In this document: piece by piece, positions 7,183 through 7,680 of the stretch
Numbering within the stretch: position 1 is the stretch's first letter
Layout: each line of letters begins with the position of its first letter
NCBI GenBank assembly: GCA_030378035.1
Contig: JAUCGI010000075.1
Location: forward strand, 1 to 22,931
Direction of reading: 5' to 3'
Length of the DNA: 22,931 nt
Source: Desulfobacterales bacterium HSG2
GTDB lineage: Bacteria > Desulfobacterota > Desulfobacteria > Desulfobacterales > 4be13
Program-made: the position numbers and the translations under genes
Notes under the pieces: generated by a model
What the model saw: only the letters and a program-made list of their open reading frames with translations
Told to the model about the DNA's origin: nothing
The model's database searches: none

Positions 7183-7680
7183 AGGAACTCCGTGAATCTT
7201 CTTCGTGCTTTGCCGTTTTGAAAAAGCTGCTTATGGCGCAGTTTCAATTAAAATAAGAATTGCCGAATCTATCTGTTGACAAAGTGTCGGAACAAGGGTA
7301 TGTGTGAATCTGATGTAGGTGGTAGCCGGAGTTTTTGCTGATACTTTGTGAATCTTCTGCGTACTTTGCGGTTTTGGAAAAGCTGCTTATGACGCAGTTA
7401 AATTAAAATCGGAATTGCTGAATTGTCCATAAACCTTGATCTTGATCTTGATCTTAATCTTGATCTTGCTCTTAACCTGTTCGATTAAGATCAGGATAAA
7501 GAGCAAGGGCAGGATAAAAATGATGAAGGGGATATGTAAATTTAATGCCGGAGGTTTCGACTAGTTCGCGTCCTCTGTGAATCTTCTGCGTGCTTTGCGA
7601 TTCTGGGAAAGCTGCTTCTGACGCTTATGGTGTGATTTGAATTAATATTAAAATTGCCGAATTTATTTCCTGACAATGAT
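7183..7680. repeat. Three dispersed copies of a roughly 90-bp element (GTGAATCTTCTGCGTGCTTTGCG...GCTGCTTATGACGCAG...AATTAAAAT..GAATTGC(C/T)GAAT) in the 1.2-kb divergent intergenic region
   Basis: Copies at about 7186-7283, 7345-7436 and 7573-7679. Each has an internal dyad CTGCGT...ACGCAG that could fold into a roughly 45-nt hairpin. Candidate small-RNA or regulatory repeats. No coding signal. Confidence 0.6.
7435..7512. repeat. (GATCTT)n hexanucleotide run folded into an imperfect hairpin (GATCTTAA...CTTGCTCTT / AAGAGCAAG...TTAAGATC)
   Basis: Read directly. About six GATCTT units are followed by their partial reverse complement. Same architectural style as 3399-3776 and 19641-19722. Confidence 0.8.

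Follow-up and report, generated by a model that had tools for sequence, protein, structure and literature searches.

Three hairpins built from runs of hexanucleotides, which we call A (3407-3799), B (7435-7513) and C (19642-19721), lie in the 22,931-nt contig JAUCGI010000075.1 of Desulfobacterales bacterium HSG2 (hereafter the window, which makes up all of the HSG2 data), and we find that these (CTTNNN)n-loop-(NNNAAG)n dyads belong to a widespread, apparently undescribed class of intergenic repeats in several bacterial phyla. We favor the view that they are non-coding palindromic microsatellites resembling foldback elements or repetitive extragenic palindromes (REPs), changed by slippage and inverted copying and situated mostly downstream of genes, a reading to which we give about an even chance of being correct. 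An earlier note on this DNA had listed the three hairpins, and each can be read directly from the sequence where that note had placed it.

Within the window the dyads stand far above chance. Runs of at least 3 CTTNNN or NNNAAG units occur 6 times against an expectation of 0.13 under a first-order Markov model of the contig, with 5 of the runs falling in A, B and C and the remaining one being unrelated (17229-17246); with the criterion relaxed to at least 4 of 5 phased units, A, B and C were the only loci returned, and the dyad patterns found 0 matches in 100 dinucleotide shuffles. Locus A is a foldback of 390 nt in which two period-6 arrays identified by Tandem Repeats Finder (TRF), of 30.3 copies at 3426-3607 and 20 copies at 3655-3774, pair as inverted repeats over 117 nt with 89% complementarity and are nested between a unique inner stem and an outer stem (Table 1); its DNA fold has an energy of -124.5 kcal/mol, with z = -16.6 vs. 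dinucleotide shuffles. For B, the fold gave z = -4.2 (+ strand) and -3.0 (- strand), while that of C, with 4 units per arm within an 8-bp outer stem, gave -5.7 and -7.5.

B and C are paralogous copies: they agree in 93% of 27 nt, have the loop ends CTTAACCT...GTTCGAT in common, and share a 19-mer, ATCTTGATCTTGATCTTAA, which is the real and longer form of a motif that the earlier note had reported for the pair. The inner units of A differ from those of B and C, but in its outer units (CTTGCT/AGCAAG, ATAAAG) A conforms to the B/C type, and GATAAAGAGCAAG of its outer tail recurs in B at 7495-7507. The suggestion that a single construction principle unites the three in a dispersed structured-repeat family has thus held up, on the paralogy of B and C, the outer units of A, and a 24-mer that A shares with a second genome. 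That genome, Desulfococcaceae bacterium HSG8, is the closest one in our species collection (80% identity of the major vault protein, MVP) and carries a dyad of the same architecture (L001 8612-8691), which has AAGAGCAAGGGCAGGA in common with the right arm of B; the tail of A is the reverse complement of L001 8612-8635 (24 nt, 100% identity). As the HSG8 dyad lies 1.3 kb upstream of the MVP gene beside a different, unrelated divergent gene, its likeness to the HSG2 hairpins is at the level of the family rather than positional orthology. No hexamer dyad accompanies the orthologues of the rubredoxin-fused oxidoreductase (Rd-oxidoreductase) in HSG7 and 3 metagenome contigs, and none was found in 1.08 Mb surrounding MVP genes from some 70 further genomes, metagenome-assembled genomes (MAGs) of Desulfonema among them; conservation upstream of orthologues, which would mark a gene-specific leader, was therefore not seen.

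The wider class comes from shotgun metagenomes, which were searched with a pattern of 3 CTT units, a gap of 5-65 nt and 3 AAG units, CTT trinucleotide repeats being excluded. This pattern had 0 matches in all loci gathered before the metagenome scan, and at least 120 shotgun-metagenome loci matched it, nearly all of them genuine dyads; the class figures given from here on are among the matches listed. Unit number ranges from 3 to more than 30, with loops of about 20 nt, and a census of units yielded CTTGCT (291), CTTAAT (263), CTTACT (115), CTTGAT (83), CTTGAA (53) and CTTGCA (37). Position 6 of the unit is T in 100 of 123 dyads, a preference that the pattern did not impose. Host contigs range in GC from 32 to 68%; one carrier was placed in Verrucomicrobiota/Chthoniobacterales by its dyad-adjacent GroEL and another matches an Ignavibacteria MAG by exact protein identity. 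Viral contigs, 2.9 million in number, contained only 3 loci with the same pattern, and a looser pattern allowing AGG was dropped because most of its matches were direct hexamer repeats within coding sequence of viral contigs. Selection of the sample by the CTT/AAG pattern, CTT-first and with restricted units, may itself account for the prominence of CTT and of that polarity. We found no earlier description of such dyads in Rfam or the searchable literature, which is not proof of absence; the literature searches yielded primers and work on unrelated subjects, a paper on intrastrand triplexes was set aside as a precedent, its motifs being G/C-rich, and the Minerva preprint makes no mention of such elements.

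With respect to genes, 127 of 132 dyads (about 96%) lie outside long open reading frames (ORFs). In co-directional gaps, 36 dyads are nearer the upstream stop and 13 nearer the downstream start (p = 7e-4), at median distances of 35 nt to the stop and 78 nt to the start, the latter being understated because the crude longest-ORF calls used for the metagenomes push starts upstream; convergent contexts exceed divergent ones by 23 to 11 (p = 0.058). Such a stop-side bias is typical of elements that are tolerated behind genes or are of mild use there. The dyads are not tied to any gene family: 87 Pfam families were found among 93 stop-adjacent neighbor proteins, and in 502 flanking ORFs the only protein cluster present in more than 3 loci was that of ABC ATPases (8 loci). 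The promoter-proximal preference proposed in the earlier note for the hairpins is not supported, since the metagenome dyads are biased to gene ends by both counts, the Rd-oxidoreductase orthologues lack the hairpin and the neighbors are unrelated housekeeping genes; the contig alone, with only 3 copies, cannot show a positional preference.

This bears directly on the idea that the dyads are promoter-proximal or 5'-untranslated elements regulating the downstream gene, be it as a stabilizing stem-loop, a translational hairpin or a variable spacer switch, which we regard as very unlikely. Orthologous genes do without the hairpins, the class leans towards gene ends, strand asymmetry is absent and B is separated from the MVP start by 470 nt that include other repeats, even though all 3 contig copies are upstream of + strand genes (distance to the next start codon about 50 nt for A, 470 nt for B and 220 nt for C) and the dyads of L158 and L149/L244, as exceptions to the general bias, end 4-30 nt before start codons. 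Locus C (19642) begins about 14 nt after a promoter-like site, TTGACA-15 nt-GATAAT (19602-19628), but the 15-nt spacer is non-standard and the site was not called in a promoter scan that also found no qualifying site before A or B. A further point in favor of the idea is that AGGA/AGGAG motifs are approached by drift in the right arm of B and in that of the HSG8 copy. For the Rd-oxidoreductase, MVP-like and M50-HlyD genes, nothing indicates gene-specific regulation by the hairpins.

A place just behind stop codons would also suit selected 3'-end or intercistronic RNA hairpins, functioning, much as REPs in operons do, as mRNA stabilizers that block 3' exonucleases, terminators lacking a U-tract or RNase III processing sites. 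Besides the median of 35 nt to the upstream stop and the very stable folds, the dyads of L158 and L211 speak for this notion in that they fill the co-directional spacer, starting 6-11 nt past the stop. However, sense and antisense RNA fold energies, assigned by the strand of the upstream gene, do not differ (n = 62, p = 0.83), leaving no G-U asymmetry in the sense of that gene; there is no U-tract 3' of the dyads, the 12-nt flank averaging 2.55 T and 38% A on both strands; and B and C adjoin no credible gene end. In addition, the dyad of L146 comes directly after a canonical groEL terminator, and relatives manage without the dyad: in L251-L255 (one genome), L256 and L257, with GroEL 94% identical, the terminator is kept and the dyad is absent, while in L258 (GroEL 93% identical) a diverged dyad is found about 40 nt further on. 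A scan for intrinsic terminators called none at A, B or C. The dyads are thus not intrinsic terminators and are present or absent among close relatives, and a selected RNA function of this kind is, in our judgment, quite unlikely. Rfam covariance models gave nothing at the gathering threshold for the dyads on both strands, the sub-threshold matches being plant and animal miRNA-precursor models of generic long-hairpin type. A loop sequence CTTCGG was considered as a UUCG tetraloop and discarded, as it is simply a CTTNNN-type unit and falls on the antisense strand in the 5 assignable cases.

Coding capacity was examined as well. No reading frame runs through the dyads, loop lengths being uniform modulo 3 (39/40/44), and this frame test effectively refutes the view that the dyads encode small peptides, for instance the 42-aa ORF at 7436-7564 (MILILILILILLLTCSIKIRIKSKGRIK...), which is type I toxin-like in being hydrophobic and then basic. 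One frame of a T-type left arm does read (Leu-Leu/Ile)n and one frame of the right arm (X-Lys)n; this peptide pattern, however, is automatic from CTTNNN, A-type units give stops or non-hydrophobic residues, and neither a start codon nor a ribosome-binding site is consistently present, so the chance of a peptide product is negligible. The small ORFs around B and C look spurious. Readings of the hairpins as integron attC sites, CRISPR, leader-peptide attenuators, CsrA sponges or Hfq (ARN)n sites were likewise dropped in view of the lack of cassettes, spacers or frame and of motifs consistent across A, B and C.

How the arms change can be followed in loci recovered more than once. One locus assembled independently from several freshwater-sediment samples (L135, L162, L181, L219, L228, L239) has exactly one CTTGCT unit fewer in the left arm in L239 than in L135, with a loop center varying among CA, CG and TG, and L135 displays a perfect mirror order of variant units. 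The orthologous dyads of L149 and L244, whose flanking proteins are 89-92% identical, differ in one arm by unit number (4 vs. 2 AGCAAG) and in the other by point changes; orthologous dyads were kept across about 10% protein divergence in this pair and in L150/L153/L211. In locus A, TRF resolved a higher-order period of 24 nt (7.8 copies) in the left arm and 18 nt (6.7 copies) in the right arm, and because these periods differ, the two arms would have expanded independently. Dyads built from tandem 7-, 8- or 9-mers also co-occur with the class, 10 having been found in 0.60 Mb of carrier contigs vs. 0 in 1.08 Mb of control sequence. The allelic series demonstrates the slippage step, and the signature of slippage or template switching that the earlier note had suspected fits the whole-unit allele differences, the super-periods of A and the co-occurring 7-9-mer dyads. 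As to complementarity, cognate arms match at the NNN positions with a score of 0.79 vs. 0.68 for non-cognate arms of the same type (p = 8e-14), and only 27% of dyads have arms at least 90% complementary.

An artefact has to be weighed for the HSG2 copies in particular. Multiple displacement amplification (MDA) generates inverted chimeras, and assembly is difficult for arrays of 120-190 nt composed of 6-nt units. The HSG genomes were obtained from single large filaments from sulfidic sediment by MDA (PMC11920609), which means that the unit counts of A are possibly inexact. That the dyads as such are inverted MDA chimeras or short-read misassemblies of low-complexity DNA is nevertheless highly improbable, considering that 1) the arms of A are imperfect and not mirror images of each other, with 89% complementarity and differing super-periods; 2) B and C are diverged paralogues; and 3) the class is abundant in unamplified shotgun metagenomes, where one locus was even recovered by separate assemblies of several samples. 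Serious doubt is thus confined to the number of units in locus A.

Since copies share loop and flank sequence, some genomes can be said to hold dispersed families. The copies of L158 have a common loop; L221 has 7 hairpins in 2.5 kb, a cluster resembling bacterial interspersed mosaic elements (BIMEs) with a common loop and linker; and the Ga0302046 dyads (L152, L154, L171, L177, L225, L235) form the center of palindromic modules of about 190 bp, with outer inverted repeats of 19-23 bp (GGGCYGYTGACMAAGTCSGC) and two inner hairpins, comparable to a composite miniature inverted-repeat transposable element (MITE). Multiple copies with common internal sequence, as expected of MITEs, are seen in B/C, L158, L221 and Ga0302046, at a density of 3 in 23 kb in the HSG2 contig and up to 5-7 in 4-11 kb elsewhere. 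As for traces of mobility, direct repeats flank 2 of 122 palindromes vs. 2 in an offset control, giving no sign of target-site duplication; the REP heads GTAG/CTAC/CGTC/GACG occur near the ends of only 3-8 of 122 dyads vs. about 12 expected by chance; and in flanks of about +/-5 kb, Y1_Tnp is not among the top Pfam families and no RAYT was seen, nor was any other mobilizing enzyme or transposase found in the flanks examined. The L158 contig (1-11090) has at least 5 dyads in 11 kb, several of which lie 6-11 nt past a stop and reach to 5-30 nt before the next ATG (or, at 9327, onto it), and 2 of which have the reversed, AAG-first order. Pfam gave no match for its 20 candidate ORFs from the two strands, nor did PHROGs for the 10 searched against it, and for this reason the dyad-dense locus is not interpretable.

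Taking the preferred reading of palindromic microsatellites as a working model, we surmise that replication slippage would lengthen and shorten each arm, in locus A in super-units of 18 and 24 nt and in each arm on its own. Inverted duplication or intrastrand template switching across the hairpin would presumably create the dyad and partly re-homogenize it, and copies might then spread without target-site duplication, either by recombination or with the help of a hairpin-acting enzyme in trans. Copies would be expected to persist where they do little harm, which is mostly just 3' of stops and, in HSG2, in very long intergenic regions. Dyads that are transcribed must form long stem-loops, which could incidentally protect or process mRNA ends, as REPs do.

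Several points weigh against this model: 1) a single AT-rich hexamer vocabulary is found in genomes of 32-68% GC from different phyla, on which neutral slippage would not obviously converge and which hints at a sequence-specific factor or horizontal spread; 2) the CTT/AAG period is kept better than the stem, as the advantage of cognate over non-cognate arms in complementarity is modest, and a simple hairpin model does not predict a period that outlasts the stem; 3) a mobilizing enzyme, target-site duplications and REP-type heads were all lacking among the dyads and flanks examined; 4) two of the three contig copies are in divergent intergenic regions, which must hold promoters; and 5) the position statistics rest on crude longest-ORF calls and on a metagenome sample preselected by the CTT/AAG pattern. 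A bolder proposition, conceivable though on the unlikely side, is that the (CTT-R-M-T)n/(A-K-Y-AAG)n dyads constitute a cross-phylum foldback-like class that is functional or actively propagated, with a hexamer code read by a dedicated hairpin- or repeat-binding protein, either a mobilizer or a nucleoid or RNA factor, and are not the passive remains of microsatellites.

In a related form of this thought, the arrays would be bound by a sequence-specific protein, or recognized as a structure by a dedicated hairpin-acting enzyme, and hence be a selected element; an oligomerizing DNA- or RNA-binding protein, by analogy with Fur on GATAAT hexamers, ribbon-helix-helix proteins on heptads or TRAP on spaced triplets, is a candidate reader of one CTT/AAG per 6 nt. 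The CTT/AAG period and the small unit vocabulary conserved across phyla of 32-68% GC, a period better kept than arm complementarity, and the survival of orthologous dyads across about 10% protein divergence (L149/L244; L150/L153/L211) are all consistent with such a binder. We consider it unlikely all the same, as there is no recurrent neighbor gene, the arms are under no mutual phase constraint (loop length modulo 6 is roughly flat), the dyads are downstream of genes and not at operators, the number of units is free to vary (3 to more than 30), dyads of other units co-occur in the same genomes, and the units are unlike the Fur hexamer.

The dyads can be compared with several known systems. Like REPs, BIMEs and REPINs, they are non-coding intergenic palindromes, apparently abundant, that occupy mostly the 3' side of genes or convergent gaps, at times form clusters whose linkers are conserved (here L221), are devoid of target-site duplications and are present or absent among relatives. 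REPs, in contrast, are 20-40-nt hairpins of unique sequence with a GTAG/CGTC head and an associated RAYT gene, are mobilized by RAYT/TnpA-REP, and are species-specific; our dyads have arms of 3 to more than 30 tandem hexamers, no enriched head, no RAYT in the flanks examined and one unit vocabulary across phyla. The foldback (FB) elements of Drosophila and other eukaryotes consist of long inverted repeats of short tandem repeats with a unique center, and their arm length differs between copies and between arms. Locus A has exactly this architecture, with 30 + 20 units around a unique core (3615-3659). FB elements are eukaryotic, with kilobase arms, units of 10-31 bp, target-site duplications and sometimes coding loops, from which the dyads differ in having no target-site duplication, no transposase in the flanks and no sign of transposition. 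Bacterial MITEs (Correia/NEMIS, ERIC, RUP, BOX) are similarly short, non-coding, dispersed and hairpin-forming, and the Ga0302046 family is MITE-like in its 19-23-bp outer inverted repeats around the dyad; target-site duplications and an identified parent insertion sequence are missing from the dyads, however, and their arms are microsatellite-like rather than unique.

Quasipalindrome template switching and slipped-strand mispairing are known mutational mechanisms, and the unit-sized indels in one arm, the mirror order of L135 and the dyads of other unit lengths resemble their products. Being mechanisms and not families, they do not explain the recurrence of CTT-R-M-T across phyla. Arrays of Fur-box GATAAT units, direct and inverted, and of ribbon-helix-helix heptads have converging units of 6-7 bp, one protein per unit, in sets of 3-10 at promoters and without a loop; the dyads differ from these in sequence, in their loops of about 20 nt and in their position mostly after genes. 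Heptamer microsatellites are found in cyanobacteria (short tandemly repeated repetitive sequences, STRR) and in large sulfur bacteria (TAACTGA) as direct arrays and not as dyads. The HSG2 contig recalls both groups in its heptamer arrays, including one of CAACTGA type (17582-17715), and its host is a large filamentous bacterium with a habitat like that of the large sulfur bacteria.

In bacteria, intergenic palindromes such as REPs and MITEs have a bearing on how plastic genomes are, on mRNA stability and on typing schemes, and to our knowledge the bacterial palindrome families described so far all have stems of unique sequence and are lineage-specific. The present palindromes have microsatellite arms, and one six-base vocabulary is common to those of Desulfobacterota, Verrucomicrobiota and Ignavibacteria. 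Two explanations of this vocabulary present themselves, a hairpin-driven mutational process at work in many genomes, which, if true, would be readable directly from sequence, or a protein recognizing one CTT per six bases. On the practical side, assembly errors and length polymorphism are concentrated at the dyads, which ought not to be annotated as regulatory leaders just because a gene follows them.

Table 1. Components of hairpins A, B and C and the genes on either side of them, in coordinates of the window
Feature	Positions	Basis or remark
A, outer stem, 5' side TCTTGCTCT	3407-3415	Paired with 3791-3799 in RNA and DNA folds
A, left arm, about 30 hexamers CTTAAA/CTTGCA/CTTTAA	3421-3612	TRF; regular-expression run 3427-3606
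A, inner stem GCACTCAGA (3615-3623) / TCTGAGTGC (3651-3659), 27-nt loop	3615-3659	Sequence, folds
A, right arm, about 20 hexamers TGCAAG/TTTAAG/TTAAAG	3651-3776	TRF; inverted repeat with left arm
A, outer tail CTTGATAAAGATAAAGAGCAAGAT, holding outer-stem 3' side AGAGCAAGA (3791-3799)	3777-3800	HSG8 match
A, flanking genes: left DUF697 (+), right rubredoxin-fused oxidoreductase (+)		
B, left arm, 7 units: CTTGAT x3, CTTAAT, CTTGAT, CTTGCT, CTTAAC	7435-7476	Sequence, run scans
B, loop CTGTTCG, 7 nt	7477-7483	Loop ends common to C
B, degenerate right arm ATTAAG ATCAGG ATAAAG AGCAAG GGCAGG	7484-7513	Period continues to about 7529
B, flanking genes: left metacaspase (-), right MVP-like (+)		
C, outer stem, 5' side TTCAGGTT	19642-19649	Pairs with AACCTGAA at 19714-19721 in folds
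C, left arm AAT CTTGAT CTTGAT CTTAAC CTTGCC	19650-19676	4 CTTNNN units at 19653-19676
C, loop = B loop + 10-nt insert	19677-19687	Sequence comparison with B
C, right arm ATCAAG ATTAAT ATCAAG ATCAAG (19688-19711), GG, outer stem AACCTGAA	19688-19721	
C, flanking genes: left UvrD-like (-), right M50-HlyD (+)		

The non-coding share of the contig, about 28%, is unusually large for bacterial DNA. Locus A begins 30 nt past the DUF697 stop (3377), and B and C sit in divergent intergenic regions of 1.1-1.2 kb that are crowded with other repeats. The MVP-like gene is preceded by 3 spaced tandem copies (7187-7290, 7343-7430 and 7572-7680) of a repeat about 100 nt long, and the second copy runs straight into hairpin B; the repeat has the inverted ends ACTTTGTGAA and TTGACAAAGT, an internal CTGCGT...ACGCAG stem and no Rfam match. 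Kinship of TTGACAAAGT with the outer inverted repeat of Ga0302046 was considered and rejected, having failed a 15-mer test with 3 mismatches allowed.

The surroundings of hairpin C are equally repetitive. A dyad of 9-mer tandem runs at 19186-19273, with CACGAAACA x5 facing TTTCGTK x3, is duplicated at 19283-19331, and related CACGAA(A/G) dyads were noted in HSG8 (L001 8838-8990) and in an unrelated metagenome contig (L143 2407-2490); its DNA fold has a z of only -1.8. The sequence AATTCAGG recurs around C at 19641-19648, 19738-19751 and 19769-19777, one occurrence being the perfect palindrome ATTCAG-C-CTGAAT (19739-19751) upstream of M50-HlyD, a candidate operator. A strong Shine-Dalgarno-like AAGGAGG at 19791-19797 is followed by no standard start codon, and the 745-aa M50-HlyD ORF opens only at TTG 19944, just after a 39-aa ORF; this region may have another true start, a frameshift or an assembly error.

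Elsewhere in the contig, arrays of a 78-nt unit (13113-13905 and 14662-15016) with the hairpins GGGGGATTGCCAAATCCCCC and ATCCGAA...TTCGGAT are BIME-like and flank a perfect 36-nt x3.2 tandem repeat (14473-14589); single related copies are located upstream of the HSG8 MVP gene (L001 9847-9906). There are four heptamer microsatellites (7921-7958, 11504-11571, 11927-12041 and 17582-17715), comprising ACTTTTA x5.4, which stops 22 nt short of the MVP ATG, TTTGTGT x9, ATCAAGC x16.7 at the 5' end of a trpD-like ORF, and CAACTGA/CCACCGA units (17582-17715) within 21-nt repeats inside the UvrD-like ORF. Further tandem or dispersed repeats were noted at 22234-22879 (139-nt unit, x3.4 and one more copy), 5473-5636 (82-nt unit, x2) and 6783-6992 (78-nt unit, x2). 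Among its proteins, the contig encodes a MACPF-hemopexin (1331-2860), a metacaspase-SH3 (5706-6743) and the MVP-like protein (7981-10476), homologues of which, with 50-80% identity, were found by a genome scan in many filamentous or gliding lineages.

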